Positions 18,777 to 59,327 of a DNA stretch of 61,704 nt are shown in pieces. The notes beneath the pieces were generated by a model that was given only the letters and a program-made list of their open reading frames with translations, was not told where the DNA came from and ran no database searches. Origin of the DNA: a virus (lineage: Duplodnaviria > Caudoviricetes); the IMG/VR virus record IMGVR_UViG_3300028840_000575, positions 1 through 61,704 of that record. One strand, written 5' to 3'. Position numbers and translations under genes: made by a program. Each line of letters opens with the position of its first letter. Positions within the stretch are counted from its first letter, which is position 1.

Positions 18777-18779
18777 GAA

Positions 18780-31766: not shown

Positions 31767-32231
31767 ATGAAATTATCAGCACAAGTAGAAACGCTCGAAA
31801 AACAAGCTGAAGCTTTGAGCAAAGAGAATAGTTCTTTGAAAAGCTCTAATGGCACTTTTACATCAACTAATAGAGCTCTTCAAAGAGAGATTACATTTCT
31901 AAAAGCGAAGGTTAAGAACTTAGAGGAACGACCTCTTCAGAAAGAGGTTGAATCTCTTAAAGAACGATTAGCTGTTGAGAATGCCAATGCTGTAGTTAAG
32001 AAATTGACTAAGAGGGTTGAGGAATTACAAAAACAATTATATGAAGAATTACAACGTACTAAACCAATTAAAGAGTTGGAAGATACTATAGTCCAATTAA
32101 AGGAGGAACTTGCTAAGGTCAGGACCGAATCCCAAGAAAAGGGTGAAAAGATTACAATATTGGAGACCGAAATTGATAATTTATTGAATAACGGAGAAAC
32201 GAATGAACCCACTACTACAGATAATAGTTAA
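31767..32231 (+). CDS. Coiled-coil protein ending EPTTTDNS
   Basis: Continuous heptads. Confidence 0.7.
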   Translation: MKLSAQVETLEKQAEALSKENSSLKSSNGTFTSTNRALQREITFLKAKVKNLEERPLQKEVESLKERLAVENANAVVKKLTKRVEELQKQLYEELQRTKPIKELEDTIVQLKEELAKVRTESQEKGEKITILETEIDNLLNNGETNEPTTTDNS

Positions 32232-32535
32232 TGTTATTTCAACTGTCGTAGGTCTTGGTCTTATAGCTATTGCTAGTAATGTTCTTAAAAATGTACTCGA
32301 TTATAAAAAGCAAATACTTAAAATACAAAATGATTTTATTGAAAGCCAACAGGATTTCATAAAATTCAAAACACAAACGGAAGAACGTTTGACATCTATG
32401 CAGAACAATTGTGCTGATAGACTTGAATGGATGAGAAAGCTTGAAACTGGACTAAATAAAATGAATTTAAATATCGTCTCTATTGGTACACGTATGCAGA
32501 TGGAAGAAAAAGATTTCCATAAATTGGATAACTAA
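32203..32535 (+). CDS. N-terminal transmembrane + coiled-coil protein (holin/spanin-like)
   Basis: One TM helix followed by coiled coil. Confidence 0.5.
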   Translation: MNPLLQIIVNVISTVVGLGLIAIASNVLKNVLDYKKQILKIQNDFIESQQDFIKFKTQTEERLTSMQNNCADRLEWMRKLETGLNKMNLNIVSIGTRMQMEEKDFHKLDN

Positions 32536-35102: not shown

Positions 35103-36091
35103 ATGCAAAGTGAAATAACAAATTCAGAGATAGAAAAAATTGAAGTATTAGATGAGAATACCATTGCTGAAATTTTCAGTGCCACAAGAAAGTATACTCG
35201 CCAAGATTTATTGAATCTTAGGACTGTGTATATAACTAAACTACAGTATATTGAAGATCTATTATCAATGTTAGATAATGAATCAACGACAACTCAAGAA
35301 GGCTCTTCGACTGTTACGGGAGAACCTCATATTCCTCCAATTTAATAGGTGAAAAGATGAAAGTTAGTTTAAATGTATCTGATCGTATTATGATGCCTCA
35401 GTTATTTCCTGAGAAATCAAGTATCATTAACCTAAGATTGACTCGTGATATTGGAGAGAAGATAAAATTAACAGATGGTGAAAAAGAAAAGTTCAATGTT
35501 CGATTTACTTCTTCCCAAGTTGCTTGGGATGTTCCTAATCTTAAAGATTCAGAAATTGAAATTGAATTTTCTAATTCTGAAATAGAATTTCTTCAAGATC
35601 GTATACGTGATCTTAATAAAAAAGAATCTTTGACAATGTCAATATTAGATCTTTGTGAAAAGATTAATAAACTTGATACAAAAGAAAAGTAAATGGCTCG
35701 AATTGGCTTCAGATATTCTGAGACTAGTGTGAATATTTATGGTGTTCTCACTAACTTGTCTAATCAACATAGGAATGCAGATATAGCATCCTTTGAAAAT
35801 TATGATGCAACAAATTGGACAAGCTACGATCATGAATTATCTGAAACAGATGATTATTTTTATGAATTAATATTGCCGACTTTAAGTGATGGTTCTTATT
35901 ATATAGAGCTATTCCTAAGAGCAGGTGGTAGTCCAGCTTTGACAGATGCTAAGGTAGGTGAAAAGGCATTTGAACTAAAGGATAATGAATTTTACACTTT
36001 ATCAAATTTAGAATTTTCTTCTGATGATATTGATGATCTTAGCCAAAGGATCGCTGAATTAACTCGTGCTTTAATTAGGTTTAATCTATGA
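35103..36091 (+). other. Three hypothetical late genes (35103..35345, 35357..35692, 35693..36091)
   Basis: Each has an RBS; the first ends ESTTTQEGSSTVTGEP. Confidence 0.6.
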
Positions 36092-38451
36092 ATGATTTAG
36101 TAACAACTTCAATCGCTGCTCCAACGGATTACTTAGATATCCCGAAGAATGCTTATGCAAAAGAAGCAGTCGCGTATAAGACCTTAAGAAGTGCTCTATA
36201 TGGCCTACAATCCTCTTCGACTTATCGTGCAGGTGAGCCATTTGAAAATCATCCGTGGGTCTATGCTGCTGCAATGGCTGTCGCTTTGAATATAAGCCAA
36301 GTACCATTTAACATCTATCGTGAGACAGATGACGAATTACAGAAGCGAATGAAGTTTAGTCTGAAGAATTACGGTAAATGGAATGGACCGCTAAGAGGGC
36401 ATAGGCGAACAGCGATACAACGACATGCACGTAAACGTCAAAGAAATTCAGGTTTTAGATCTAAGGCAATTGAAGAAGATTATCAGCATCCTTTGTCACA
36501 GTTGTTCATAAAGGTTAATCCTCATATGGTGGATTCACAACTTTGGCAAATAACTACAATAGATCTTATGACAAAAGGAGAGCACTTTTGGCGTCTATTG
36601 AATGAAGCTGGTGAGCCTATTGGTATTGGTGAAACTCCATCATACATTTGGCCAACAAATCCAAATCAAATGGATACGATAATCCATGGTGGTGAATTTA
36701 TTGGATGGAAATTTACACAAAAGAAATCAGATGGTCAAGGCGGTTTCTCAGGTCGTGTCCAGAATTTACAAATTTGGCAAGTGATCCAATTTAAATTTAT
36801 CGATCCAGAAAATCCCCTTAGAGGTATGGCTCCTCTAATTCCTGTTATTGGTAATGTGAAATTAGATGTTTCGACCATAGATCATAATCAGTCAACAATG
36901 TCTAATGGTGCTGATCCAGGTGGTCTTCTGATTAACGAAGAAGGCTTTGATGATGAAATTGAAGAAAGAAAATTCTTAGAGAAATACAATCAAAGGCATC
37001 GTGGAGAAAAGAATACTGGTCGTACAGGTATCTTATCCGGCGGTTGGAAATATTTTCAAACAGGTATGTCCGTAAGAGATATGGACTATCCTAATCTTAA
37101 GATCTGGAACCGAGATGAAATCCTTGCAGCTATGAGGACACCGAAATCTGTTCTTGGTGTAACAGATGCTTTAAATTATGCTACTCAATTAGGACAGGAT
37201 AATAATTTCTGGAATAAAACAGTTATTCCTTTATTGAAATATTATGAAACAATTATTGATGGTACTTTATTATTTGAAGAGCCTGATAATATTGTTGGAT
37301 TGTTTGATTTATCTGGTGTTGAAGCATTAAGAGCTGGATTAAAAGATCAAGTTGACATAGCGAAAAATATGTCAGGTGCTGATTTGCATGTTCCTCCATC
37401 ATTGGCATTTGAAAAAGTTGGTCTCGATATGGAGGAATATGAAGGATCGGATGTTGCATTAATGAGTCCGTTGTTATCCACAATAGATACTATTCTTAAT
37501 CCTGAAGAACCGGAAATAGTTGAGCCAGAACCAACAGCTACAGAAGAGCCAGAGGAAGATCCTGTTCCAGATTCTGAAGAAAAACCTGTAGAGGAAACAG
37601 GGAAATCTAATATACTCATCGTAAGTAAAGCTAATAAATTATCCTTATGGAAGAAATATATTTACAAAGTACATTCGCCAATGATGCTTAGAACATCTGC
37701 TCAATGGCGTAAATATATTAAAGCAGAAAAGAAATTACAATTAGCAAAGTTCGATGAAATAGCTGGTGATAAATCTTGGGATAACGGAACTATAGGTTTA
37801 AGAGTATTTGAATCCGATGATGGATATAAACCATATAATAGAGCGATAAGTGCTGAATCTGTTATCTTAGATTTGAATGAAGCTGCAAAAAGATTAGGTA
37901 TTAAGATTCGTCCAGTGTATGATAAATCACTTGAAGAGGTTTATGACTATACTGTAGAAGAAATTGGTGGCGTCGCAGTATTTGAATTAGATGATCCAGA
38001 CATTATAGAATTTTATAATACTGCGGAGAAAACTTTAGTTGGTACAGCTCCTAAAACACTGTATAAGAATGTTCTTGGATCAATTAGAGCAGGTATTGAA
38101 GCTGGAGAAACAATCTCAGAACTGAGGTCCAGGATTGGGAAGGTTTTTGATATTTCTTCTTCGAGTCCTAAAACCTTGCAGATTGCAAGAACAGAATCTA
38201 CATTCTTCACAAATGGTGCTAAGGATGTAATGTATAAGAAAGCCAGTATACAGGAATCTGAATGGGTAACTGCTGGCGATGAAGATGTTCGTGATAATCA
38301 TACGACATATGGATCTTCTGGTCCTCATCCAATAGATTTTAATTATCTAAGTTTGGTAGGACTGGCTGGAACATTAAGATATCCTGGAGAGAAAGGTGCT
38401 CCAACTTCAGAAGTTATTAATTGCCGATGTACTAAAATTCCTGTTATATAG
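36088..38451 (+). CDS. HK97-type portal protein fused to a Mu gpF/SPP1 gp7-like minor head domain
   Basis: PWVYAA, HPL, GEHFW, RGMAPL, NGADPGGL, EILAAMRTP; C-terminal IARTE, WVTAGDEDVRDNH, LRYPG, INCRC. Confidence 0.85.
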   Translation: MNDLVTTSIAAPTDYLDIPKNAYAKEAVAYKTLRSALYGLQSSSTYRAGEPFENHPWVYAAAMAVALNISQVPFNIYRETDDELQKRMKFSLKNYGKWNGPLRGHRRTAIQRHARKRQRNSGFRSKAIEEDYQHPLSQLFIKVNPHMVDSQLWQITTIDLMTKGEHFWRLLNEAGEPIGIGETPSYIWPTNPNQMDTIIHGGEFIGWKFTQKKSDGQGGFSGRVQNLQIWQVIQFKFIDPENPLRGMAPLIPVIGNVKLDVSTIDHNQSTMSNGADPGGLLINEEGFDDEIEERKFLEKYNQRHRGEKNTGRTGILSGGWKYFQTGMSVRDMDYPNLKIWNRDEILAAMRTPKSVLGVTDALNYATQLGQDNNFWNKTVIPLLKYYETIIDGTLLFEEPDNIVGLFDLSGVEALRAGLKDQVDIAKNMSGADLHVPPSLAFEKVGLDMEEYEGSDVALMSPLLSTIDTILNPEEPEIVEPEPTATEEPEEDPVPDSEEKPVEETGKSNILIVSKANKLSLWKKYIYKVHSPMMLRTSAQWRKYIKAEKKLQLAKFDEIAGDKSWDNGTIGLRVFESDDGYKPYNRAISAESVILDLNEAAKRLGIKIRPVYDKSLEEVYDYTVEEIGGVAVFELDDPDIIEFYNTAEKTLVGTAPKTLYKNVLGSIRAGIEAGETISELRSRIGKVFDISSSSPKTLQIARTESTFFTNGAKDVMYKKASIQESEWVTAGDEDVRDNHTTYGSSGPHPIDFNYLSLVGLAGTLRYPGEKGAPTSEVINCRCTKIPVI

Positions 38452-38463
38452 GAGAATTGAAAA

Positions 38464-38649
38464 ATGGCGTCTACAACGACTAGTGAACCAACGACAACTA
38501 CGAGTGAGCCTACAACTACGGCTGCTCCTACAACTACGACACCGGAACCAGTAGGGCATTTCTCAGGTTATAATCGTATGATCCCAGCAATAATCACGGA
38601 GGAACTTGTCGATGAGATGGTTGATTCTGGTATTATACCTGTTCTGTAA
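38464..38649 (+). CDS. 61-aa mucin-like Thr/Pro-rich protein
   Basis: AGGAG RBS; MASTTTSEPTTTTSEPTTTAAPTTTTPEP. Confidence 0.75.
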   Translation: MASTTTSEPTTTTSEPTTTAAPTTTTPEPVGHFSGYNRMIPAIITEELVDEMVDSGIIPVL

Positions 38650-39424
38650 TGGATGTGATAAATTGGATTGTTTGGCTCAGTACAAATTGAATGATAATTT
38701 AGGAAATACTCTTGTCGTAGATAGTCAAGGATTTTCTAATGGGACTGCAACAGATAACACATCTGATTTGCATGTAGATGGAGTATTGAATGGAGCATTC
38801 CATTTCGATGGATCACAAGGTATAAATTGTAACAGCTATTTCCATGAAGCATTTAATGATTCATGCTCTATAAGTCTATGGATTAAACCGGATGATGGAT
38901 TACCTGCTTCATCAAATGGAATATTTGGTGGAGGGGCATTGACAGAATATATTGCTCTAACTTTGTATAATAATGGTGGTACAAGTAGATTAGCTTTTGG
39001 ATATAGATCACAAGGAAATTCTGTTGCATTCAATGCTGATGGACTATTTACAGATGGCCAACAAGATTGGAAACATATAATAATTACATTGGAACAAGTG
39101 ACAGATACACAGGTCACGGCTAAATTATATGCTGATAATGTTCTTCATACGTCTGTTGGTCCTGTGACCTGTGTTATGTCAGACTATAATCAGACCTCTA
39201 GAAAGTTTGCTATTGGAGCCAATCAAATATTCCTTGCTACTTATTTCAAAGGATCTATTGATAACTTTATGATTTTCAATGGTATACTTACAGAATATGA
39301 AAGAGAATGGTTATACAATGATGGATTGGGGACAGAAGTTATATTAACTCCTGGCCACAATACTCTTGTTCTTAATCCTTATTTTGATGAAGAAGATGAA
39401 AATTTTAAATTGATTGGATTTTAA
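38606..39424 (+). CDS. LamG / concanavalin A-like domain protein (start may be TTG 38663)
   Basis: YKLND..G....DSQG, GAFHFDG, SISLWIK, WKHI, FKGSIDNFMIFN. Confidence 0.8.
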   Translation: MSMRWLILVLYLFCNGCDKLDCLAQYKLNDNLGNTLVVDSQGFSNGTATDNTSDLHVDGVLNGAFHFDGSQGINCNSYFHEAFNDSCSISLWIKPDDGLPASSNGIFGGGALTEYIALTLYNNGGTSRLAFGYRSQGNSVAFNADGLFTDGQQDWKHIIITLEQVTDTQVTAKLYADNVLHTSVGPVTCVMSDYNQTSRKFAIGANQIFLATYFKGSIDNFMIFNGILTEYEREWLYNDGLGTEVILTPGHNTLVLNPYFDEEDENFKLIGF

Positions 39425-40197
39425 TGCTAGTCTTAATTGCAAGATATTGGAATGAAATTGAATGGATCAATACTTCCCTGGAATATATATTCCAATGGAA
39501 TCCAGACAAGGTTATTATATCTGAAGGTAATTGGTCTTCGCATCCTGCGTTTAAAGGCAGAGAACATTCCACAGATGGTACAAGAGAAATTCTACAACAA
39601 TTTGCGAAAGCTAATAAAGATAGAGTACAACTTATAAATGGCGAAAGGGTATCAAAAGATTATAGAACTAATCAGGCTGCAACCTGCAGGAAAGCTCTAG
39701 AATTATCTGGTGCTAAGCCTGGAGATTGGTTTATAACGATTGATTGTGATAGTTTTATAAGTCAAGAATCAATAGACACCATAAAGATACTTATGAAAAT
39801 ATCCGGTGCATATTATTTTCCATATTTAATAAACCATTTTATGTGGGATTTAGAAACATGCGTAACATTAAGAGATATTCATGGCAACTTGCTTCCTCGT
39901 AAAATACATTCGGATGGCGATTTTAAAAATGCTAATCATTATGGTATAGGAAAAAATTACTACACTGGAAATCCAGAAATACACAGTTTAACCTTGGATG
40001 ATTATAATATTCAAGGATATCATTATTCCGGAATTAAAAATAAAGATCGCATTGAAGAACGTTATCTTCTAGGTGATAAACTGAAATCTAGACCAGAAAA
40101 AAGAGGCTACGATAAGAAGCGAAAGCCATTCACAGGTCAACATCCTGCGATTGTTCAGGATAAATTATTTGGAGACAAATCCCATGTTGCATCTTAA
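39424..40197 (+). CDS. GT-A (GT2-like) glycosyltransferase in the head module
   Basis: WNE..WI, ISEG, STDGT, WFITIDCD (DxD), HYS, HP. Confidence 0.75.
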   Translation: MLVLIARYWNEIEWINTSLEYIFQWNPDKVIISEGNWSSHPAFKGREHSTDGTREILQQFAKANKDRVQLINGERVSKDYRTNQAATCRKALELSGAKPGDWFITIDCDSFISQESIDTIKILMKISGAYYFPYLINHFMWDLETCVTLRDIHGNLLPRKIHSDGDFKNANHYGIGKNYYTGNPEIHSLTLDDYNIQGYHYSGIKNKDRIEERYLLGDKLKSRPEKRGYDKKRKPFTGQHPAIVQDKLFGDKSHVAS

Positions 40198-41488
40198 TGA
40201 AATTAAATCTGCTGAAACTATTACTGATCCAGAACAGATTGCTGCTTTATTAGAATCTGCTGATCTTAATAAGAAAAATTCAGATCCTCTAAAGGATCAG
40301 ATGCCAGATACAACATATGAAAGAACTGATAAAGGTCTTAAAGTAACTAAGCATCTTTCGGGACAATCTATTCTTCAAGTAAGAGGAGTACCTTCATCAG
40401 ATGAAGTAAGAAAACTTGCAGAGTCTAAAGGTATTCCTTGGAAAGATGAGTATATGTCTCGTCTAATACCTTATTGGGCCAGTGATGAACGCGTAGATCG
40501 ACATGGCGATATTGTTAAACAAAATTGGTCTTTTGAGGATTTCGAAAAGAACAATATCATGTTGTATTCTCACAGTTGGGACTTGCCTCCAATTGGTGCT
40601 GTTTTAGATTGGTCTGTCAGTTCAAGAAATGATAAAGATTATTCTGGGAAAGCTCTATATCTGTTAACTTTATTCGCAACTAAAGAACAATGGGATTGGG
40701 CAGATACCATCTTCCGTTTGGTATCTGGAGGATTTTTAAAGAGTGGATCAGTAGGATTTTACCCGGGGACTATTATAGATGTCAAGGATGAAGAAGAAAG
40801 AGAGCAACTTGGACTTGGGAGATGGGGATATATTCTGGACAATAATTCTCTTATTGAATGGTCTCCTACAAGTGTACCTGCGAATACTGGAGCTCATGTT
40901 GTTCTTAATTCAATGAAAGAAAATAATCTATTGAAATTTGAGGATGCCCCAGTTATCCGTGAATTGGAACGTCAGCAATTGCAAAGAGGTGAAGGTGATA
41001 TTGAGGCATGGAAGCAGATTGATGCAACAATTTGTAGAATGTGGAAAGATTTATTTGATAAGGATCTTCCTGAACATAATGAGTTAGATGAGCCGTTCAT
41101 TGAAGCTGAAAAAACAGCTACTGAAGAACAAGAAGAATCTGAAACAATTTCTGATGTTGATCCTGATCCTGAGGAAGAAAATGAAAAAACATTAGAGGAT
41201 GTAAGTATCAGTGTTGAAGAGTGCAAAGAAATGTTATTATCTATAAAGAAGTCTACTGAAGCATTTTCAAATGCTTTAGATGAACTGAAAAATGAATTTT
41301 CCACTTTCTCAGAGGACATGACAAATAATATTGAAATTATTTTAGAAAGTGGTACAAATAGCGGAAAGGAAACAAATGTACCAAATGAAGAACAAAATTT
41401 AGACGAAGATAAGAAAGAAGCTCTGTTAAATATTTTAAATGTTATTAACAATTTCAACGATTCTTTTAAGGAGAATAAAAATGGCTGA
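40184..41488 (+). CDS. HK97-type prohead protease with acidic C-terminal extension
   Basis: ASDERVDRHGD, LYSH..PIG, SVGF, EWSPTSVPAN. Confidence 0.85.
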   Translation: MLHLNEIKSAETITDPEQIAALLESADLNKKNSDPLKDQMPDTTYERTDKGLKVTKHLSGQSILQVRGVPSSDEVRKLAESKGIPWKDEYMSRLIPYWASDERVDRHGDIVKQNWSFEDFEKNNIMLYSHSWDLPPIGAVLDWSVSSRNDKDYSGKALYLLTLFATKEQWDWADTIFRLVSGGFLKSGSVGFYPGTIIDVKDEEEREQLGLGRWGYILDNNSLIEWSPTSVPANTGAHVVLNSMKENNLLKFEDAPVIRELERQQLQRGEGDIEAWKQIDATICRMWKDLFDKDLPEHNELDEPFIEAEKTATEEQEESETISDVDPDPEEENEKTLEDVSISVEECKEMLLSIKKSTEAFSNALDELKNEFSTFSEDMTNNIEIILESGTNSGKETNVPNEEQNLDEDKKEALLNILNVINNFNDSFKENKNG

Positions 41489-42884
41489 AAATGCCCCTAC
41501 AGAAAAAGATGTCGCACAACAGATTTTGAATAGTGTTGGTGGCATGGAAAAAAGCGTCACTCAGGTGGTAGAGGATTTAAAAGCTCTACAGACCAAAGTT
41601 GATGGACTTGAAGGTCTCGATCTTGATACTTTCAAAAGTGAATTTGAGAAACTTCGTGCATCCCACGAAACTGTTATCAAATGCATCAGCAGCAACAAGA
41701 ATGGATTCCATATTCCTGGTCTTGAAGATGAGAAAGAGAAATTCTCATTACTTCGTGCAATGATCGCTGTTAAAACTGGCAACTGGGATAAAGCTGGTTT
41801 TGAAAAGGAAGTATTTGAACAGGCAAGAGCGAAGGCTTCGCATGTGATCGGTATCGATTCACAAGGTGGCTATTTTGTACCTGATCAAGTTATTCCTGAA
41901 GTAATTGCAGCAATCTATGCAAGATCTGTACTTGTTGCTTTGGATGGCGATGGTCAAACTCGTGTTTCTGTACTTGACGGTTTATTTGGTATTCCTGTCA
42001 AGATTCCGAAATTCAAATCTGGTATGATTGCATATTGGATCGGTGAAGAGGATGACTATGTTGAGTCCGCTGTCAAAGTTGGTAATGTGACAATGACTCC
42101 GAAGAAACTCGGTGTTCTTGCACGTATCACCAATGAAATGCAGCGATTCTCAGGTTTCGGATTTGAAACTTTGCTCCGCAATGATTTTATCAAAGCTGCT
42201 GCAAAGAAGATTGACTGGTCTATTCTCTACGGTACTGGGACCGACAATATGCCGAAGGGCTTGTTCAATATGATCAATGCTACTAATCTGGCTCAGTCTG
42301 ATCGCAATGCCTATCCTTCAGTACAGGTTTATAAAGCTGAAAATAGCTCATTGTGGAATGGTTCTGCTATCACTGATAGTGATGGTGGTGAGCTCGATTT
42401 TGATGATCTTATGGAAATGCAGGGTGCTCTGGAAGATATCAGTATCGATCCAGATAACACGTTTGCAACGATTGCTCCGGCACGTTATTTCCGTCGTTTG
42501 AAACAGTTGAAGATTTTGAACTTCACTGGTCAAACTGAAGGTCAGCCATATCTGGTCGGTGTGCCAATGTTAACGGATGCAAAACTCCGTGATCTTATTG
42601 GCGAGTATGCTAAGCATACACAGATGCCAAGCGGTCAGCTTCCTGGTGCATCTCTTAACTGGGCTTCGGACAATGGCAACCTCAAATATGGCGATGTCGC
42701 TATGGGTAATTGGGGTGAAATGCTGTTTGGTCGTTGGTCTGGTGTTGAGATCGAAGATGATGCTGGTAAAGGCAAACATTTTGTAAGTGACGAAACACTT
42801 ATCAAACTTCGCATGTTCTGTGATATTGGTATTCGTCATGAGCAATCTCTTGTCGTATGTCCTGATGCACAAATGAAAGACTAA
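41481..42884 (+). CDS. Major capsid protein, HK97 fold
   Basis: GGYFVP, AYWIGE, KKLG, LYGTG...PKG; N-terminal coiled-coil delta domain; follows the protease. Confidence 0.9.
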   Translation: MAENAPTEKDVAQQILNSVGGMEKSVTQVVEDLKALQTKVDGLEGLDLDTFKSEFEKLRASHETVIKCISSNKNGFHIPGLEDEKEKFSLLRAMIAVKTGNWDKAGFEKEVFEQARAKASHVIGIDSQGGYFVPDQVIPEVIAAIYARSVLVALDGDGQTRVSVLDGLFGIPVKIPKFKSGMIAYWIGEEDDYVESAVKVGNVTMTPKKLGVLARITNEMQRFSGFGFETLLRNDFIKAAAKKIDWSILYGTGTDNMPKGLFNMINATNLAQSDRNAYPSVQVYKAENSSLWNGSAITDSDGGELDFDDLMEMQGALEDISIDPDNTFATIAPARYFRRLKQLKILNFTGQTEGQPYLVGVPMLTDAKLRDLIGEYAKHTQMPSGQLPGASLNWASDNGNLKYGDVAMGNWGEMLFGRWSGVEIEDDAGKGKHFVSDETLIKLRMFCDIGIRHEQSLVVCPDAQMKD

Positions 42885-42971
42885 TGACTTAGTCCCACCT
42901 TAGGATCGAAGTGGGAGAAAACTACTTTATTGTTTCTGAATTAAATGTTACTTTAGTATAGGAGAATTCAA

Positions 42972-43511: not shown

Positions 43512-43537
43512 GGAGTCTTTTCACCTCCTGTTGGATT

Positions 43538-43570
43538 GGGGCTCGCGGACCTTCGGGTCCGCGGGTTTCC
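43538..43570 (+). terminator. Terminator hairpin with cUUCGg loop
   Basis: GGGCTCGCGGACC-TTCG-GGTCCGCGGGTTT. Confidence 0.75.
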
Positions 43571-46569: not shown

Positions 46570-46581
46570 TCTGCATTTCTT

Positions 46582-46625: not shown

Positions 46626-46646
46626 TAATCTTACAAAGGTGAAAAG

Positions 46647-50309: not shown

Positions 50310-51998
50310 ATGACATTTCAAACTACTCCAGCTACGAATTGGCCAAGTGACGAAAATAAAATATGGTTAAATCCATATATGTTTCTTCATAACTGGTCCA
50401 CGAGTATAGAAGTAAGATCAAGATGGCTTACAGATGTTTCTGCAAATAGAAATTCTGGAGAGGTCAGAGTAGGATTAGTAGATAGGCCATTTAGGGTATT
50501 AACTGCAAGATATACGGGGATGACCAAAGAACAAGTATTGGGTCATCAAATGATGTTAGGTAGAATGGGTAAAGCTCGTTTTTGGTTCCCATTATATTCG
50601 GATGTCACTTATCTAACAAGTAATGTATCGCAACCATCACAAACAACTACGACCACACTTGAGCCGTTTGTTCTTCCTTGTGATACAACGAATCGTAGAT
50701 TTTATTCTAGTAAATATGTTGCAATAGTTACTGTAGATACTGAAAGTAAATCTAAAACTCCATATGTTGATATAGTACGTATTGTTTCTGTCAATGATGA
50801 CTATCTATCTGTTTCAGGAACTCTGAGTAGAAATTATAATTTGGGATCTAAGGTATTCCCTATAACTGTTTGCAAAATACTGGCACAAGAATCTAAGGAT
50901 TCTATTACAGATAGAGTATCAGATGGCAATATAACAGTTAATGAAATAATAGGGAAATATTCTTTACCTGCTTCTGCCATTAATAAAGAGATAACAACGG
51001 ATTATTCTGAGGCTGTTGCCCCAATTGGTGAAGAATATCCAATATTGAGTATTCGTCCTGATTGGAGAGAAGGATCTATCGGTTGGGAAAGAGATCTACA
51101 GATCAATTCATCTGGCAGAGGTGAGATAATAGAGACTTATGGTAATAGACCTTTAGTTAATAAATCCACATCTTTTACTTTCCTTAATAGATCTTCAGCA
51201 TTTAATTTTCTTAAATTATTTGATTCACGTAGAGGTAGATTGCATCCTCTATTTGTAATTTCAGATTTTAATGAATACAGTGAGATATATGATATAAGCT
51301 CTGATAGAAAACAAATTTCAATAGAGTACACAGGCCCAAAAATAAATTGGGCATTCAGGCCATATCTAGCAATAAGATTGAAAGATGGAACTCACATTAT
51401 AAGAAAAGTTTGTGATGTTCTTTCTACATCGACTACCACTTATGAACCTCTTACAACTACTGCTGATCCAGGAGCAACATTAGAAAGCGTTTGTTTAGAA
51501 ACGGCATTACCTGCATTTTCATTATCTAATGTTCATAGGTTGCATACAGGCTATTTAGTAAGATTCAATAAGGATGAATTAGTTGAATCTTGGATAACAG
51601 ATTCAATTATGCAATGTAGTATAGATTTTAAAGAACTCGATGAAAAAGATATAGATTATGAGGTAGGGTATTTTGGAACAACGACTACAACACTAGAGCC
51701 GACTACTACAGCAGGGCCAACGACAACTCTTGCAGGTGATCCAGGATCTGTGACTGCTTTCTTTCCAGCAGAAGGGGAAGCATATCTGCAAGATTTGTAT
51801 TTGACAGATGCAGAAGGAACTTGGGATGGACATGTTTTAAATATGACGACAGGCAATGCAGCGGGATACTATGCAACTATTGTATATTGGGGAGGACCTG
51901 GATATCCTTGGTTCCAATTAGTTCAATATTCTTTCCCTTATCCACCAGCACCAGAAACATGGGACGTACAAGTTGGAGATCATTATGTACTATTCTAA
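50310..51998 (+). CDS. Tail tip / distal tail protein with three Thr-run inserts
   Basis: Follows the TMP; HNW...WLTDV..SGEVR.LVDRP.R repeated architecture, RRGRL. Confidence 0.65.
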   Translation: MTFQTTPATNWPSDENKIWLNPYMFLHNWSTSIEVRSRWLTDVSANRNSGEVRVGLVDRPFRVLTARYTGMTKEQVLGHQMMLGRMGKARFWFPLYSDVTYLTSNVSQPSQTTTTTLEPFVLPCDTTNRRFYSSKYVAIVTVDTESKSKTPYVDIVRIVSVNDDYLSVSGTLSRNYNLGSKVFPITVCKILAQESKDSITDRVSDGNITVNEIIGKYSLPASAINKEITTDYSEAVAPIGEEYPILSIRPDWREGSIGWERDLQINSSGRGEIIETYGNRPLVNKSTSFTFLNRSSAFNFLKLFDSRRGRLHPLFVISDFNEYSEIYDISSDRKQISIEYTGPKINWAFRPYLAIRLKDGTHIIRKVCDVLSTSTTTYEPLTTTADPGATLESVCLETALPAFSLSNVHRLHTGYLVRFNKDELVESWITDSIMQCSIDFKELDEKDIDYEVGYFGTTTTTLEPTTTAGPTTTLAGDPGSVTAFFPAEGEAYLQDLYLTDAEGTWDGHVLNMTTGNAAGYYATIVYWGGPGYPWFQLVQYSFPYPPAPETWDVQVGDHYVLF

Positions 51999-52010
51999 CA
52001 GGAGAAAAGC

Positions 52011-53105
52011 ATGACTTGCAGATTTAGAAAGAATGAAGAATGTGATTTAATTAAAAGAATTAAACCGCAGGATTGTAAAGTGAATGATTTATTTTGTCAG
52101 CATCATTGTTCTGAACATGATGATGTATTAAAAAATCAAATGTTGAAAACTCATTTTGGAGCATCTATTGATCTAGAATCGATGAAGCAAGTGAAAAGAA
52201 TTACTGTTAATGATGGGCAACTTATTGTTCTTGATACGAATGACCAATTAATCAAAAATAAAGAAATCGATAATTCTTGTATATCAGTATTATTACCTTC
52301 ATGCAATGAAGAAGATGATAATCTTAAGAATACAATAAATTCACTTTTAGAAAATGCTGTTCAAGAAGTTCAAATACTGGTAGGAATAGATGGAAGTGAC
52401 GAAGAATCATTAGATCATCCTTCAGTAGTGACAAGAAGATTTAAACAGAGAATAGGTAAAAGAAAAGTATTAAATGAATTAGCTAGTATTTCTTCAGGTG
52501 ATAAATTCTTTATACTTGATTCTCATTGTGCAATAACAAAAGGATGGGATAAAGAGTTAAAGAAATATCATTTAAGGAATTCAATTCTACAAACAACTTT
52601 AGATAGTCTAAGCCCAAGAAAATCAGATGGCACTTTATATTGGAAAGGAAAAGGAAACCGATACGATTTTGTATATCTGAATACAGAATTAAAAGATAAA
52701 TGGTGGCTCGCATATTCAAAACGTCTTCCTAAAAATTGGAAAGTAACTGAGACAATGGGGTTAACGGGATGTGGATTCTTAATTGATAAAGAGTTATTCT
52801 ACCATTTAGGTGGATACAATGAATCCTTTGGAGAACTTCGTGGTGCTGAAGGCCCCGAATGGGCTTGTAAAGTATGGCTCTCTGGTGGACAAGTTTTAAT
52901 GCACAGAAATGTCATCACTGCTCATTTGTTTAAAAAGAAGGAGCCATATACTTACAGTATTAAGAAATTAAGAGATTCGTATTCTAAAGTAAAAGAATGT
53001 TTTTGGAATAGACAAGGACCGCATCAAATCTTCTCTCCAGACTGGCTTGCAGAAAGATTTAATCCAGTCCCTAAATGGGAGGAATACTTTGAAAACAGAA
53101 AATAG
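52011..53105 (+). CDS. Polypeptide GalNAc-transferase-like (GT27-like) glycosyltransferase
   Basis: ISVLLPSCNE, IDGS, ILDSHC..KGW (DxH), GCGFLI...LGGYNE..GAEGPEWACKVWLSGG....AHLFKKKEPY. Confidence 0.75.
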   Translation: MTCRFRKNEECDLIKRIKPQDCKVNDLFCQHHCSEHDDVLKNQMLKTHFGASIDLESMKQVKRITVNDGQLIVLDTNDQLIKNKEIDNSCISVLLPSCNEEDDNLKNTINSLLENAVQEVQILVGIDGSDEESLDHPSVVTRRFKQRIGKRKVLNELASISSGDKFFILDSHCAITKGWDKELKKYHLRNSILQTTLDSLSPRKSDGTLYWKGKGNRYDFVYLNTELKDKWWLAYSKRLPKNWKVTETMGLTGCGFLIDKELFYHLGGYNESFGELRGAEGPEWACKVWLSGGQVLMHRNVITAHLFKKKEPYTYSIKKLRDSYSKVKECFWNRQGPHQIFSPDWLAERFNPVPKWEEYFENRK

Positions 53106-53802
53106 AAAAATTGGCTCCTTAGTGACAACTAAAGTAAGAGAAAAATTTCTTCCTTCACAATTACAAGATCTTTCTCCCCAATTGGATACTCTGTATGTGA
53201 CGCTAAATGGATATTCTAAGATCCCTGATTTTGTAAATGGCTTTTCAAATGTGGAATGTATTTGTGATCCTAAGAATAGAACAAGAGATATTGCTAAATT
53301 GCTAATCTCTAAAGAAGTTGGTTCTTGTTATTTCTTTACTTTTGATGATGATCTTTTATATCCTGAAGATTATGTATCTAAGTATATGGAAAAATTTGAG
53401 CAGTATGGTAAGAGGACTATTCTATGTTTACATGGAACAATATTAAAACCTAATTGGATAGTGTATTATCAGCATAGAAAAGTTTTACACTATTTTGAAC
53501 CAATGGAAAAGGATCGAATATTCGATCTTGCAGGCACAGCAACAACTGCTTTCCATACAGATTCATTAAAAATTAATTTCAATGAAATATGGGATTATGA
53601 AATAGGATCTGATCTTTGGCTTGCGTATTTTGCATATAAGAATGATATTCCTTTACAAGCAATTGCACGAAAAAAGAATTGGGTTGTTTGCAAACCTGGA
53701 ACACAAAGTTGTGGGACTCCTTTATATGTGAAAGTTGCAAAAGATAAACTATGGCAATGGAGAAGAAATAGATTCTTTAGAGGATGGAAAGTAAATGTCT
53801 AA
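53089..53802 (+). CDS. GT-A glycosyltransferase
   Basis: GGAGG RBS + TTG; VTLNGY, FTFDDDLLYP.DY (DxD), LHG, GTATTAF, SDLWLA. Confidence 0.75.
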   Translation: MKTENRKIGSLVTTKVREKFLPSQLQDLSPQLDTLYVTLNGYSKIPDFVNGFSNVECICDPKNRTRDIAKLLISKEVGSCYFFTFDDDLLYPEDYVSKYMEKFEQYGKRTILCLHGTILKPNWIVYYQHRKVLHYFEPMEKDRIFDLAGTATTAFHTDSLKINFNEIWDYEIGSDLWLAYFAYKNDIPLQAIARKKNWVVCKPGTQSCGTPLYVKVAKDKLWQWRRNRFFRGWKVNV

Positions 53803-54415
53803 TACTATCAATGTGAAAACTTTAGATGACCAAATCTCAAAGAACTTTGCAACATTGGTGTCCTTTTACTGGGATGAAGATTATTCACAACAGAGTAATT
53901 ATATTGCTTGGACAGAGGATCTTACGATCACTACTATAGAATATGAATCAATTCCAGAGTTAGAAGTTAAAATGGGGACACAACATGGTGGAGCAAAAGA
54001 TGCCCCTATAAAAATCTCTATTCCTGGATCGTTCTCGCCAATAAATAAATTAGCAAGACCATTTCCTCACTCTGATGTGAAAGTCTTGGTTGCAGAATGC
54101 GATCCTTATGATGCAGTCAATACTTATAATATTCTCTTTCTAGGGTATATAACTAAGATCAACTTAGGACGGTACTCATCAAACTCACTTGCAGAATTAA
54201 CAGTCTCAGGATTAAAATCACAATCAGAGTTTCCTGTTGGTTTTCCTGCAAATTCTGATTGTATTCTCGATTTGTTTAATAGTATTTGTAAAGTCCCAGA
54301 AGAAGAATATTCTTCAACGATCCAAAGTATATCTAGTGATGGAATGACTATACTCGTTTCAACACCTGTAGAAGTCACAACCACAACTGAAGAACCAACC
54401 ACAACTGGAGTATAG
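53795..54415 (+). CDS. Baseplate hub (DUF2163/BR0599, lambda gpL-like), N-terminal half
   Basis: LFLGYI, DCILDLFNSICK; ends VTTTTEEPTTTGV. Confidence 0.6.
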   Translation: MSNTINVKTLDDQISKNFATLVSFYWDEDYSQQSNYIAWTEDLTITTIEYESIPELEVKMGTQHGGAKDAPIKISIPGSFSPINKLARPFPHSDVKVLVAECDPYDAVNTYNILFLGYITKINLGRYSSNSLAELTVSGLKSQSEFPVGFPANSDCILDLFNSICKVPEEEYSSTIQSISSDGMTILVSTPVEVTTTTEEPTTTGV

Positions 54416-54416
54416 T

Positions 54417-55994
54417 GTGTCTGATTTAAATAAAATATTCTTAGATGCGAATAATAAATTAGATGTCTATGAAATATTTCCTGGATGGAAAGAATATAAT
54501 TCTTATACAGGGTATGACATAGGTGGTGGATCTATTTCTGTAGACGGTAATTTCACAAAGAAGATTCAAAATGGGGCTTATTATGGAATAGGCATGTATA
54601 CAATTTCTGGAGGAGTAGAGGTTTGGAAAAAGAATCTTTCTACTTCCTCTGGATTTTATTTATCTAAGCCTGTATATGATTCTACAACAGATAGACTATA
54701 TTTTGTTGTGTCTAATGGATTGAGTGGAAATAATATATACGGAGTAGATAAAGATACTGGTGGTGGCGGAGTAGCAACATTAATAGATCATAACGATTTA
54801 GGTGGTGGATTGACATCTACAGAATTTCATGATATTTCTGTAGATTCTTCTGGATATTTATATTTATCTGGGAACGGTGTTATCGCTTCAACAACTCATT
54901 GTCTTGTATTAGTTAAATTAAGTTCTGGTCTATCCGTAATAGATTACATTATAGTTGAAGAAAATTTGTCTGGAGCTGGAACTGAAATAACAAGAGACAC
55001 ATCTATTGATGTTGGGTTTATAGGCGGTGTTGAAAGAATAGTTGTTGGATTTGATGGGGAACTCGGTGATGACAAATCCAATATTCGATTATATACTTTG
55101 AGTCTAAATAAAATTTGGTCACAAAGATTAACTCCTTTTATTGACGGAATTATAAATGTTAATCCAGAATATTATGGATCAAGAAAAGTAAAAATATTTG
55201 GTGACTCACAAGATATCCTTGTGTTAATGTCAACACCTTCTAGATCATCAGGCAGATGGCAATATTACGTTGGAGGACAATGGCCAGATCCTCCTTATCA
55301 ATATTACTATATACGAGATCATACTGAGCATTTAACTTTTGATATTCTATACAGAATAAATGGAGGAAATGGTTCGACAATATGGTCTTCTCCTTTGATG
55401 GAAGTTGCAGATCAAGAGAATGTAAATCCTGCAACAGGGATTGGAAATGGAACATATGATAATTCAGCAATGGAGTATTTTGATGATCTAGATTATGATG
55501 ACTTAGGAAATATATGGGTGAGCTATTATCAAGACTACAATGATAATAGTTCTTCGATGAAGAAAATAAGTGGATCTACTGGAAGCAGTTCAAGCAATAT
55601 TTTTACAGATCCAGATTATTTTGAAGATGGTGGGAATGTCATTATACAAGGCTTTGAAGAACCAATATCTGAAACAGTTACTTCCGAGCCGACGACTACA
55701 ACAACACAAGAACCATTACCATGTGAAGTATCTAATTTATTTGAATATGGTTATATTGAAAAAGATGGTATAAGAATTCTTATACGAAAGACAAGTGGTA
55801 ATGAATTAAAATTAATAAGACCGATTCCACCAGAATGGATTGTTGGGACAGAATTAAAACTGGTCCCAGGATGTAATAAAACTCCTTGTGATTGTTTATA
55901 CAAATGGAATAACATAAATAATTTCTTAGGTCTTGGAATCAAGATGCCAAATGCTGATCCATTGACTGCTGATACTGGAGCTAATCCTGGATGA
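54417..55994 (+). CDS. Beta-propeller-like domain + C-terminal half of the baseplate hub
   Basis: GGAG + GTG start; DISVDSSGYLYLSG repeats; after TTTTTQEP: FEYGYI...LVPGCNKTPCDCLYKWNNINNFLG..MPNADP. Confidence 0.65.
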   Translation: MSDLNKIFLDANNKLDVYEIFPGWKEYNSYTGYDIGGGSISVDGNFTKKIQNGAYYGIGMYTISGGVEVWKKNLSTSSGFYLSKPVYDSTTDRLYFVVSNGLSGNNIYGVDKDTGGGGVATLIDHNDLGGGLTSTEFHDISVDSSGYLYLSGNGVIASTTHCLVLVKLSSGLSVIDYIIVEENLSGAGTEITRDTSIDVGFIGGVERIVVGFDGELGDDKSNIRLYTLSLNKIWSQRLTPFIDGIINVNPEYYGSRKVKIFGDSQDILVLMSTPSRSSGRWQYYVGGQWPDPPYQYYYIRDHTEHLTFDILYRINGGNGSTIWSSPLMEVADQENVNPATGIGNGTYDNSAMEYFDDLDYDDLGNIWVSYYQDYNDNSSSMKKISGSTGSSSSNIFTDPDYFEDGGNVIIQGFEEPISETVTSEPTTTTTQEPLPCEVSNLFEYGYIEKDGIRILIRKTSGNELKLIRPIPPEWIVGTELKLVPGCNKTPCDCLYKWNNINNFLGLGIKMPNADPLTADTGANPG

Positions 55995-56479
55995 TTCCGA
56001 TATATTGGGACAATCATAGTTGCGAACCTTTGGCAAGAAGGTTAACACAGGTCTACACAGAATGGAGAGGAACACCATATATGAGAGACCAATTATGTAA
56101 AGGTGTTGCGTGTGATTGCGTGACTTTTGCATATGGATTCTATTGTGACCTCTTCAAAATAAATTATAAAGGTGTTCATTTACCTTCTTTGCCAAAATTT
56201 TCTCCAAAGAGAAGTGGAAATTCAAAAATAACTTTTGAGTTAATAAAGATATTCAAAGAAAAATTTTCTATGGTGGAATGGGATAAGCCAATTGTTAATC
56301 CTGGAGATCTAATTGCAGCAAGGACTGGAAAAGGATTTGGCCATGTTTTTATAGTCGCTTCTGAAAAGAATTTCTTATATCATTGTAATTATGATGTAGG
56401 AGTAGTAAGATCTGGATTCAGTGCTATTGCATCAAAACCTCTTATACTAAGATCAACTGAGAGAATGTCATGGGTTTAG
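55991..56479 (+). CDS. Tail-associated NlpC/P60 protein
   Basis: WRGTPY...GVACDC, PGDL, GHVFI, LYH. Confidence 0.85.
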   Translation: MIPIYWDNHSCEPLARRLTQVYTEWRGTPYMRDQLCKGVACDCVTFAYGFYCDLFKINYKGVHLPSLPKFSPKRSGNSKITFELIKIFKEKFSMVEWDKPIVNPGDLIAARTGKGFGHVFIVASEKNFLYHCNYDVGVVRSGFSAIASKPLILRSTERMSWV

Positions 56480-58818
56480 AAACTCTAATATTTATAGGTA
56501 TATCTGCTGGATTAAGTTATCTATCTGCAAAACTGATGCAGAAGACGCAGTCCTCAAAAGTGAAAGCTGAACAGGCTACACTTACAACTAGAGGTTCGTA
56601 TACAAATTTCTTAAGAGGCAGAAGAAGAGTTGGTCCTTTATTCGCGTGGGCTGGTAAAAGAACTTCCTCTAAACATGATGATGTTCGTTACTATTATGAA
56701 AAGGGATGGCATGTCTTAGCTGTTGGTCCTTGTACAAGGCTCACTAAAATTTGGAAAGATGGGAAAGTATTATGGGACGAGGGAATAGACAGTACAACAA
56801 CTCCATCAGGTTCATATGTCACTATAGGCAAAAGGAAGATAAGGGGTTTTTGGATCTATTGGGGAGAAAATGATCAACCTGTAGACTCCAATCTTGCAGA
56901 ATGGCTGGGGATAGAATCCGCATGGCCTAAAACTACTTATGTAATTCTTAATGGTGTTGAATTGACGACTGGTCGTTGGCCTGATTTTCAATATGAAATA
57001 GAATGTTTTGGCATAACACCAGAAGGAACTGATGGACTTCAAAATTCTACAAGGATTAATACAGATTATACAATGAATCCTGCTCATGTTATTTGGGAGT
57101 ATTCTTATCAAGATTATCCAGATGGGTGTGGAATAAGTTTTGATAATCTGGATAAAGATCTGTTTGAAGAAGTTGGTACAATCCTTGAAAATGAAGGAAC
57201 TTGGTGTAGTGTTTTATCTAATGATGGTAGAGATCTAACTGAATTAATAGCAGATCTATTAGAAGATTTTGGATTAATGTTATGCCAAAGAGGGAATAAG
57301 ATAGGATTAATAGCTGTAAGAAGCACAGAGTATGCTTTAGTTCTTGATGCTAATCAATTAATGCCTCCTCTACCAGAATTGGAATTTAATCTGATAGAAC
57401 GTGGCAAGAATAAAATTATCTATAAGTATTCTGACTATGAAAATAATTATACTGAGACAGATGTAAAAGTTGATAATGATGGTACAAGTACAAAGATCCG
57501 TCCTAATATAGATACAGTGGAACTTGCAACTATTATATCTAGAGATACTGCTAATAGAGTTTCTGAAAGGAAATCCCAAGAGCAATTAGTTGGTCCAATA
57601 AAATATAAATTAAGTGTTAATAGAGCAGGAAGAAGCCTTAGAGCAGGAGATTCAATATACATAAGTGATATCGGTAAAATGAGGGTGACTTCATACTCAT
57701 TAGATACAATGTCTGCAAGAACTGAGATAGAAGTTGTTGTTGATCTATATGGTCTTGAATTATCCGGATATCTTAATGGGATAATAACTGGTGGAATAGA
57801 TGGCGATGGTGCTTATTTAAGAGATGACATAGCTTTCACAGCTTTAGAAATGTACAGAGAAGCAGATGATTACCATTACAAAGAGATAATAGTTCTCAGA
57901 ATAAGAAGAGAATTGAGTTCCGGTTTTGCTAATGTTCTTGTTTCCTTTGATGATGGAACATCTTATGAGACAATAGCAGAGACTAATGATCTATGTTCTG
58001 GCGGTAGACTATTACAAGGAATTGAAGAAACTGATAATTTCATAATAGAGGAAGGTCCAATTATATATGTCGCTAATACGGATATTGAAAATGTAGAAGA
58101 TCTTTCTACTGATCCAATTTCTTGGCATTCTGGAAAACAACTATGCTTCATAAATAATGAAGTATTTTATTTGCAGAAAGTGACCGCCATTTCTTCAACA
58201 CAGTATAGATTAGATGGTTTAATACGTGCCAGATTTGATACAATTAGAGAAGAACATTCTATTGGTGACTACGCTTTTATAATTCTAAAGGAAGATTTAA
58301 CTCCTATACAAGATAATAGATTTAATTCTGGTCAAGAAATTTTAGTGAAAGCACAGCCAAAAACTGATGAAGCTGTATTAGAAGAAGATGGTATAGTGCC
58401 TAAACAATTAACAACTGTTGTACGAGGATGGAATCCATTATCTCCAAAAAATGTACGGGTGAATTCAAGTATCTTGTATGAGCCTAGTCAAGATTTTACA
58501 ATCACTTGGTCTATACGGAAAATGGTTGGAAGTGAGTATCATACTGCAATGTCTGGAAGACAAATTTCTGGGACAATTGTAGAAGATACAAGTGCTCCTA
58601 GAGATGGATATTTCCGTGTTGAAGTGAGGGAAACTTGGGGATATACAAGATTATCATATGACGTAGATAGTGATACATATCAGAAGATTGTCACTTGGTC
58701 AGATGTTGAAGACGCATTTGGTCAAGTCCCCGATGAACTTGATATCGCTGTTATAAATATTTCTGGTAAGAATGAGAGTTTAGCAGGCATTCAAAGAATT
58801 CGTAAGGAGAAATCATAA
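56470..58818 (+). CDS. Central tail fibre / host-specificity protein (GTA-like phage tail protein)
   Basis: GRRRVG...W, IWKDGK, MNPAHVI, LRAGD, YRLDGLIRARFDT..EHSIG. Confidence 0.8.
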   Translation: MGLETLIFIGISAGLSYLSAKLMQKTQSSKVKAEQATLTTRGSYTNFLRGRRRVGPLFAWAGKRTSSKHDDVRYYYEKGWHVLAVGPCTRLTKIWKDGKVLWDEGIDSTTTPSGSYVTIGKRKIRGFWIYWGENDQPVDSNLAEWLGIESAWPKTTYVILNGVELTTGRWPDFQYEIECFGITPEGTDGLQNSTRINTDYTMNPAHVIWEYSYQDYPDGCGISFDNLDKDLFEEVGTILENEGTWCSVLSNDGRDLTELIADLLEDFGLMLCQRGNKIGLIAVRSTEYALVLDANQLMPPLPELEFNLIERGKNKIIYKYSDYENNYTETDVKVDNDGTSTKIRPNIDTVELATIISRDTANRVSERKSQEQLVGPIKYKLSVNRAGRSLRAGDSIYISDIGKMRVTSYSLDTMSARTEIEVVVDLYGLELSGYLNGIITGGIDGDGAYLRDDIAFTALEMYREADDYHYKEIIVLRIRRELSSGFANVLVSFDDGTSYETIAETNDLCSGGRLLQGIEETDNFIIEEGPIIYVANTDIENVEDLSTDPISWHSGKQLCFINNEVFYLQKVTAISSTQYRLDGLIRARFDTIREEHSIGDYAFIILKEDLTPIQDNRFNSGQEILVKAQPKTDEAVLEEDGIVPKQLTTVVRGWNPLSPKNVRVNSSILYEPSQDFTITWSIRKMVGSEYHTAMSGRQISGTIVEDTSAPRDGYFRVEVRETWGYTRLSYDVDSDTYQKIVTWSDVEDAFGQVPDELDIAVINISGKNESLAGIQRIRKEKS

Positions 58819-59327
58819 TGTCTAGAATCCAACAGTTGCTGAACATTTTTGAACTTGCAGTTGATGCACCTGAATGGGATGCAACAGCAGATTCAAATTT
58901 TCAAAGCATTCAAGAATTTATATATACTTGGGAAATGACCGAAAGTGAAAATCAAATAACTATCCAATTACAAGATTCAAAAGGAGATGATGTAGAAGAG
59001 ACTTGCTACTTGAGGGTTCGTCTATGTAGTGGCACTGGATATTCTGCACATGGAGATGCTTCCTTTTCAGTTTCTACTGGAACAATTGTTGAAACAATAT
59101 CTTCAGGCGTTGATGAGATAATACAGAGTGATTCAACTGGTACTATAGTTTTAGACATGGAGACAGCTACGACAACAGCAGTACCTGAAACAACTACAAC
59201 AGGTACAGCAACTCCAGCACCGACAACAACAGTCACCCCCGAGCCTGTATCAGGCATTATACGTATTGGTCAACCCCCAATTAGTTCCCGTTTAGCTGAT
59301 TATTCAAATACATTGACTGTCAGTTAA
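58818..59327 (+). CDS. Tail-associated protein with a long Thr/Pro tract
   Basis: ETATTTAVPETTTTGTATPAPTTTVTPEP. Confidence 0.65.
   Translation: MSRIQQLLNIFELAVDAPEWDATADSNFQSIQEFIYTWEMTESENQITIQLQDSKGDDVEETCYLRVRLCSGTGYSAHGDASFSVSTGTIVETISSGVDEIIQSDSTGTIVLDMETATTTAVPETTTTGTATPAPTTTVTPEPVSGIIRIGQPPISSRLADYSNTLTVS

Follow-up and report, generated by a model that had tools for sequence, protein, structure and literature searches.

A candidate phage-encoded O-glycosylation system combining a GT27-like glycosyltransferase with threonine tags in virion proteins

The closest described counterparts of the system considered here are found in eukaryotes and in mycobacteriophages; the papers named below are cited from parts of their text. 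In eukaryotes, mucin-type O-glycans are started by polypeptide N-acetylgalactosaminyltransferases (ppGalNAc-Ts; CAZy family GT27, defined in bioRxiv 2023.10.26.564164; mouse GalNAc-T1, 1xhb; human GalNAc-T2, 2ffu and 4d0t), with a DxH motif and a distal His as metal (Mn) features (bioRxiv 2023.10.26.564164; PMC6994419). This modification is promoted by proline (Pro) at positions −3, −1, +1 and +3, and with a snail enzyme an exchange of Pro(+3) to Lys lowers incorporation to 10% (PMC6994419). In GalNAc-T2, Phe280, Trp282 and Phe361 form the Pro pocket (PMC4432651). For the mycobacteriophages Che8, Corndog and Myrna, phage glycosyltransferases (GTs) have been described to glycosylate the virion (Freeman et al. 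2023, via PMC12363180, PMC12619734 and PMC11600133). In this study, we analyzed the IMG/VR virus record IMGVR_UViG_3300028840_000575 (61,704 bases; hereafter the window, i.e. the whole stretch of DNA and the whole record), in which three GT genes lie among late genes whose products carry short inserts of threonine (Thr) runs and Pro, here called tags. A phage-encoded O-glycosylation of the virion at these tags appears to be the best reading of the locus, with a probability of about 0.7.

As in the mycobacteriophages, where capsid and tail tube proteins are modified, three phage GTs are present; this precedent had been named in the sequence-only reading. In the mycobacteriophages, capsid and tail tube subunits carry the glycans at their C-termini according to the excerpt of PMC12619734, whereas the window has internal and terminal Thr tags in 8–11 unrelated proteins and an untagged capsid protein. 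Compared with the 52011 family profile described below, the Che8 proteins gp108, gp109 and gp110 reached probabilities of 42%, 1.0% and 0.2%, with nothing matched beyond the GT-A core (52011 profile only). A literature search, mostly of open-access papers judged largely from titles and abstract openings, yielded no paper that describes GT27-like enzymes of phages together with distributed Thr tags.

Glycosyltransferases in the late gene block

Genes are named by their first position; L, G and P numbers are our handles for sequences from related loci and records. The GT genes and the gene upstream of one of them are as follows.

52011–53105, + strand: putative soluble ppGalNAc-T-like (GT27-like) GT-A enzyme, 364 amino acids, with a short Cys-rich N-terminus; D170-S-H172, H305, F307
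53089–53802, + strand: putative GT-A enzyme like the N-acetylglucosaminyl (GlcNAc)-transferase domain of heparosan synthase and KfiA, DDD motif; start codon uncertain, open reading frame open from 53047
39424–40197, + strand: putative GT-A enzyme (GT2-like) with a DxD motif, encoded after the LamG gene and before the prohead protease gene; possible extender or second primer
38606–39424, + strand: LamG/ConA-like domain protein (PF13385, E 6.2e-14), untagged, start uncertain

The sequence-only reading had placed three GT-A genes inside the morphogenesis operon and had likened the 52011 protein to ppGalNAc-Ts, and both observations were borne out. PF00535 matches exactly three times in the whole genome, at the three GT genes (E values of 7.6e-14, 1.7e-5 and 3.4e-5), and the curated cut-off is passed by 52011 alone. 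For 52011, the first 15 of 18 phmmer matches in the PDB were all ppGalNAc-Ts (best E 1.6e-10). A family profile (A4, 39 rows) matched ppGalNAc-Ts across the whole catalytic domain with E 5e-28, followed by the next non-GT27 GT with 4e-11 over the N-terminal half, and the top 30 listed rows of a Foldseek search were all GalNAc-Ts, at a mean model pLDDT of 60 and TM-scores of only about 0.4. A structure search in BFVD gave generic viral GT-A matches alone.

Like the eukaryotic enzymes, 52011 has a GT-A catalytic domain over its length with DxH, distal His and an equivalent of Phe361. All 39 family rows have D170, H172 and H305, and F307 is nearly invariant. The Pro-pocket positions of GalNAc-T2 correspond in the profile alignment to L223, T225 and F307, of which only F307 is conserved (Leu and Thr replacing Phe280 and Trp282). 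The WGGE motif reads RGAEGPE, in which Gly and Glu are kept and Trp is replaced, and a clade of relatives associated with serine (Ser) tags keeps W-G-x-Q. Unlike the eukaryotic enzymes, the protein is viral, and it appears to be soluble and cytoplasmic; it has no type II membrane anchor (maximum 17-residue hydropathy 0.87) and no C-terminal ricin-type lectin domain, with 59 residues remaining after H305 and no such Pfam match. By sequence, profile and predicted fold, 52011 is most like the ppGalNAc-Ts, though not a canonical member; it would work like a GT27 enzyme and is proposed as the priming enzyme. Many GTs of this family bear a fused Cys-rich domain (L055, about 1540–1680; N-termini of P0006, P0009 and P0034; DUF6171 in L182), which stands alone in the GT-less record G003. 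Matches of profile A4 in G003 and in four records found by a tag search were rejected as GT candidates, being to this Cys-rich N-terminal domain. Relatives of 52011 were absent from a single-protein scan of viral contigs and from a tblastn search of 50,697 cultured-phage records.

For 53089, phmmer against the PDB gave heparosan synthase (8vh7, E 6.7e-23) and KfiA (5z8b, E 3.1e-15), with matches spanning the domain and the DDD motif present; we take the family label to be GT45. These are capsule polymer enzymes, and a partner glucuronyl-transferase for 53089 was not identified in the window. The heparosan synthase and KfiA GlcNAc-transferases add GlcNAc onto a sugar, therefore the extender role that the sequence-only reading had given to 53089 fits. 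Relatives of 53089 lie directly upstream of 52011-like genes in L063/L108 and L064 and nearby in L109/L110. The assignment of 39424 as a GT-A enzyme is weakly placed: in Pfam, PF13704 (E 7.6e-5) and PF00535 (E 8e-4) both stay below the cut-off, a single-sequence fold model has a pLDDT of 39, and the sole profile match in the PDB is GmaR (E 0.042, generic GT-A core), which we assume to be flagellin-modifying. Its Atlas score to viral clusters is 0.97, with PF00535 on 45% and 53% of their members, and D107 and D109 (DxD) are invariant in 12 of 12 homologues. The LamG protein 38606 is a possible lectin partner; a frameshift fusion of it with the tagged gene 38464 found no support, as three matching contigs have no indel. 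Since the genome has no PF01370 epimerase, the sugar donors would come from the host. In close relatives, GTs and tagged genes may stay together, as suggested by equal lengths of the longest contig (59,374 for P0004, P0158 and P0165; 6,445 for P0002 and P0159).

Threonine tags in late proteins

The tags of the window are listed below, the last four being weaker or doubtful.

38464–38649, + strand: 61-amino-acid protein, mostly tag, with four Thr runs and x-x-P after each
43188–43205, + strand: TTT-LEP in 42972–43511, the gene directly after the major capsid gene; putative decoration protein by position only
43889–43909, + strand: TTTT-SVP in 43721–44077 (phrog_1084, PHROG function label unknown)
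46177–46197, + strand: TTTT-PSP in the tail tube protein 45751–46569 (phrog_807, E 2.4e-19)
50310–51998, + strand: tail assembly protein (phrog_1082) directly upstream of 52011, with six Thr runs in three clusters (50643–50666, 51432–51470, 51678–51728)
53795–54415, + strand: tail hub protein, N-terminal part, with a tag at its end (54377–54406); matches residues 3–195 of the single 277-amino-acid hub gene of L052
54417–55994, + strand: about 420 residues without assignment, a tag (55692–55715) and the C-terminal BR0599 part of the hub (PF09356, E 3.4e-9; residues 197–272 of the L052 hub)
58818–59327, + strand: last late gene, three Thr runs (59169–59240), Pro(+3) in two; no Pfam or PHROG match
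32211–32219, + strand: weaker tag EP-TTT at the C-terminus of the coiled-coil protein 31767–32231, Pro at −1 and none at +3; virion role putative
35286–35294, + strand: weaker tag in the C-terminal tail of 35103–35345, run without Pro at +3
37522–37551, + strand: P-T-A-T-E-E-P, a doubtful tag within the acidic linker of the fused portal/MuF protein 36088–38451
56794–56802, + strand: doubtful TTT in the tail-tip protein 56470–58818, Pro at +1 only; within chance expectation

Runs of at least three Thr occur 22 times in 11 of the 30 late proteins, whereas 4.77 would be expected after shuffling within each protein (200 shuffles, maximum 13); the 42 early proteins have none (0.95 expected). Among all amino acids, Thr alone exceeds the shuffle maximum in late proteins. 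A TTT-near-Pro motif is found in 10 of 30 late proteins (shuffle mean 1.19; maximum 6 in 1000). Inside the runs, 12 of 56 adjacent codon pairs are identical, less than the expected 37%, thus the runs are not DNA slippage repeats, and the mixed codons indicate that selection acts on the protein.

Pro stands at +3 of 16 of the 22 runs (background 3.7%; binomial p 7e-19, which is overstated because runs of the same gene are non-independent and the position was chosen after looking) and at −1 of nine; in close relatives, 19 of 23 runs have Pro at +3. This grammar, which the sequence-only reading had not spelled out, matches the known acceptor preference of eukaryotic ppGalNAc-Ts, which favor Thr runs preceded by Pro at −1 and followed by it at +3. 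It is complete in eight of the 11 run-bearing late proteins (38464, 42972, 43721, 45751, 50310, 53795, 54417 and 58818). The "about a dozen" tagged late proteins of the earlier reading are reached only if the weaker cases 31767, 35103, 56470 and portal are counted, and the portal tag may be ordinary, as orthologues carry Pro-rich linkers of all kinds at this place. Every tagged protein and GT checked by hydropathy has no membrane segment, therefore an acceptor role of the tags needs a cytoplasmic enzyme.

The tags are discrete insertions, probably placed separately into unrelated genes. In 42972, the tag is an insertion of about 8 residues in place of a short turn, present in L045 and absent in 10 of 10 other (distant) orthologues. 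The orthologue of 43721 in L045 has a TTST-AEP variant at the equivalent place, and that in L144 has no tag. The first tag of 50310 is absent in six of six distant orthologues and present with varying length in L046 and P0158–P0160; as a set, the 50310 tags are kept with variable length in P0158–P0161, and none is found in P0162. The hub gene is one piece in L052 and L069, and in the window a tag marks the exact point at which it is split into 53795 and 54417. The stop of 53795 and the start of 54417 are one base apart, and the 513-amino-acid hub version of L049 also has an insertion. Searches of the PDB gave no match for 42972 or for the N-terminal part of 54417; in the Atlas, 42972 led to unnamed viral clusters, with Bbp16 on 14% of the members in one.

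Homology shows in part that the tags sit in loops, linkers and termini, and for the tail tube in an outward-facing domain. The tail tube tag, which is retained in L045 and L046, would fall in the inserted domain 2 according to a weak profile match to YSD1 gp22 (6xgr, E 0.002), and in the YSD1 tail tube domain 2 is external and forms the outer surface, as stated in the excerpt of PMC7385642. A glycan coat on head, neck, tail tube and tail tip had been proposed; tail tube and tail tip do carry tags, whereas the major capsid protein and the recognizable neck protein 44640 are untagged, as are the protease and the tape measure protein. Hence, tagging of "head" and "neck" rests on 42972 and 43721, whose putative roles are read from gene position.

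Tags and enzymes in related loci

Relatives of 52011 were located in searches that included a narrower alignment of the family (A5), resulting in 121 loci. Ten of these with fewer than 180 aligned residues were left out and the other 111 were merged at 90% identity to 84. In the tree, a clade of 36 rows (SH-aLRT 99, quick search) includes all 28 loci with Ser-Pro tags and none with Thr tags, while all ten Thr-tag loci and the window sit among the other 48 rows. The tag text of the Ser clade consists of repeats of the S-P-S-[ILV]-S-P kind, and in both tag types a hydroxyl residue has Pro at its +3 position. L100, retrieved by a query from the Thr side, groups in the Ser clade and carries a Ser tag. 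Tag type follows the 52011 enzyme tree; because this pattern is one branch on the tree, the small Fisher values obtained are overstated. The Ser clade (L002–L044, L100) has its repeats in one to five adjacent proteins, and its sister L127 has a poly-Ser tract. Another acceptor-like text was seen near a 52011 relative in a Ser/Thr/Cys repeat protein (L068:641-1726).

All five complete Thr-side records examined (G013, G015, G023, G018 and G020) contain a Thr-rich tract, which in two of them lies beyond the 10-kb flank or is of other text. A DNA pattern for six Thr, found in 5 of 13 records of the Thr side, 1 of 20 of the Ser clade and 0 of 7 without a GT, makes too stringent a test, since the window itself has no six-Thr run.

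Relatives of the phage family, in contrast to the enzyme family, were gathered via the tail tube, tail assembly and capsid proteins. The 52011-type catalytic domain is missing in 8 and in 21 such records (non-overlapping sets, mostly fragments), PF00535 has no match in the eight larger relatives versus three in the window, and TTT-x-EP is found in none of 13 relatives versus nine times in the window. In L052, L069 and L070, the orthologue of 50310 abuts the hub gene, with no GT at the place where the window has 52011 and 53089. A joint absence of tags and GTs from the family relatives is supported by these comparisons of sequence. Tail tube paralogues occur in tandem in some of them, four in G003 (L047:9968-13726) and two in L152.

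For a survey starting from the tag, a DNA pattern for TTTT-x-EP-TTT was used. At least 132 stretches were found; flanks were obtained for 80, and 70 were kept after removal of same-contig repeats. A 52011 profile match was present in the flank of 3 of these 70 loci. Other GTs stand beside the tags, GT2-like in seven loci and GT17-like in four, and the commonest neighbor of Thr-tagged genes, in 16 of 70 loci, is an unnamed protein family (L214:8719-9669 on the − strand and 15 other loci) with no Pfam or PDB match. The tag is therefore not exclusive to GT27-like enzymes: the 52011-type enzyme tends to come with the tag, and the tag does not imply a 52011-type enzyme. In five complete small phage records without PF00535 (L189, L193, L195, L234 and L247), the Thr-rich protein starts with an apparent signal peptide. 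Thr-rich proteins of this kind, with a PA14 domain in L184, are possibly substrates of host membrane glycosylation.

Readings of the system and genome setting

If phage-encoded O-glycosylation is the correct reading, the soluble 52011 enzyme would use a metal ion (DxH and distal His) and host UDP-HexNAc late in infection, and would put the first sugar on Thr of extended T(n)-x-x-P tags in the host cytoplasm. Afterwards, 53089 and possibly 39424 would add further sugars onto the primed residue, so that glycans would be carried by the tail tube and the tail tip, and probably also by an accessory protein of the capsid. The tag would serve as a portable acceptor, inserted separately into unrelated genes. 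Its most likely purpose would be a hydrated shield that keeps off proteases and prevents adherence to sediment particles or biofilm matrix; alternatively, it would modify adsorption. The more specific idea of a phage cytoplasmic counterpart of mucin-type O-glycosylation, with a lectin- and membrane-free GT27-like enzyme, a portable (T/S)-x-x-P sequon and co-evolved Thr- and Ser-reading branches, has roughly even odds.

Several results weigh against glycosylation of the tags by 52011. A full 52011-type catalytic domain was found in none of the 48 whole records of the tag-first survey (four match the Cys-rich N-terminal part only), and PF00535 in 14 of them (5 of the 11 complete ones). The co-occurrence of Thr tags and GT27-like genes, which the sequence-only reading had proposed to test, holds in part: both are missing in the family relatives and tag type follows the enzyme tree, but it is not seen in these 48 tag-first records. 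In addition, 38 of the 48 loci outside the Ser clade show no Thr tag in the fetched flank, many of them on short contigs, and the same applies to 9 of 15 first-query-A loci of at least 9 kb outside the Ser clade, to G014 (41% complete) and to L315, a prophage-like stretch in a Phycisphaerae metagenome-assembled genome. The family comparison is a single phylogenetic contrast, confounded with GC content (34–40% versus 43–67%), and GT-less records of at least 90% completeness are only G003 and G006 (G008 has 89%). Two partial records have Thr runs with no GT detected, namely L051 (36% complete; N-terminal Thr run in the 50310 orthologue) and L152 (14% complete; TTTT-AVP in one frame). Finally, the 52011 protein keeps only one of the three residues of the GalNAc-T2 Pro pocket and has another residue in place of the catalytic-loop Trp, the major capsid protein is untagged, and the tag patterns were defined after the data had been seen.

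The least improbable alternative, though an unlikely one, is that the tags serve as flexible or extended linkers that stay unmodified, with the GTs acting elsewhere, e.g. on host surface glycans for receptor masking or serotype change. Several window tags do sit between domains, and the small complete phage records without PF00535 use Thr/Pro runs as linkers in exported proteins. However, there is nothing for a linker to do in a tight turn (42972) or at free termini (53795, 31767, 38464), a fixed Pro(+3) and a tag type tracking the enzyme tree are unexpected for a mere linker, and the GTs, which are encoded among the late genes, lack membrane segments. It is also unlikely that the tags are glycosylated with 39424 or a host cytoplasmic enzyme as primer and 52011 as an extender or as an enzyme for already glycosylated sites. 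The same tag text travels with the other GT families and the unnamed family mentioned above, some GalNAc-Ts need prior GalNAc (bioRxiv 2023.10.26.564164, in part) and 52011 has no Trp282 equivalent, and the only PDB lead for 39424 is GmaR; yet this weak match is confined to the generic GT-A core, and Thr or Ser tags accompany the relatives of 52011 in loci without a detected 39424 relative, tblastn for 39424 having given 0 matches in every fetched 52011-family locus.

Less probable still is an involvement of the GTs in DNA hypermodification, in which GT-A enzymes would glycosylate 5-hydroxymethyluracil DNA. Phage GT-A enzymes can glycosylate DNA bases, and the known ones come, like those of the window, from genomes with a base-modification pathway (Pyle et al., bioRxiv 2023.12.21.572611, in part): the window holds genes for ThyS, dCMP deaminase, 5-hmdU kinase domains and radical SAM proteins, and the GT-less G006 and G008 are also without the hmdU kinase. 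The known DNA glycosyltransferases cluster with 5mYOX/ThyS genes according to the same source, whereas the window GTs lie within the structural genes, 19–40 kb away from the base-modification cluster, and their family does not travel with the hmdU kinase. PF18723 is missing from all 33 other records that carry a GT of the 52011 family, none of the 121 GT loci has a ThyS or hmdU-kinase relative in its flank, and the tags would be left unexplained; this evidence concerns 52011, with 39424 less covered. That the runs are products of chance or DNA slippage has hardly any credit left: run length does differ among close relatives, but the 22 runs stand against 4.8 expected, their mixed codons are less repetitive than expectation, and run positions are retained at 50–75% protein identity.

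If O-glycosylation of the tags is true, virion glycosylation would be more than a mycobacteriophage oddity on two proteins, namely a modular system of writer enzymes and tags that is recognizable from sequence. Small soluble GT27-like enzymes would be active in the bacterial cytoplasm, in natural Thr- and Ser-preferring versions, which would provide a tool for O-glycoprotein production in bacteria and a handle on the origin of mucin-type initiation. The short tags and the 61-amino-acid all-tag protein make testing cheap.

The window, from an uncultured tailed phage, has direct terminal repeats and a completeness of 100%, and nearly all genes are on the + strand. Positions 28943–59327 form a siphovirus morphogenesis block with terminase, portal/MuF, protease, capsid, neck, tail tube, tape measure and tail tip genes (Pfam and PHROG); the closest cultured capsid proteins are only about 27% identical to that of the window. 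Positions 36000–55999 were matched without any difference by one contig in each of three public runs labelled sediment or seawater metagenome, from which this DNA may originate, and no RNA run is listed among the public runs holding window sequence. Promoter-like sites occur in the window at chance frequency, and a tRNA search of it found none. The left part of the genome carries replication and base-modification genes. A cluster at 13065–19916 encodes a 5-hmdU kinase helical domain, B12 and SPASM radical SAM proteins and a kinase-methyltransferase fusion, with which ThyS and dCMP deaminase at 2978–5064 are counted; these genes suggest an unusual thymidine hypermodification. The family members G006 and G008 have no such cluster. 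The terminase large subunit (28943–31144) has about 220 additional N-terminal residues with no family match. Strong terminator-like hairpins lie at 31714–31741, 5′ of 31767, and at 46582–46618, 3′ of the tail tube gene, the latter with a perfect stem of 16 pairs.

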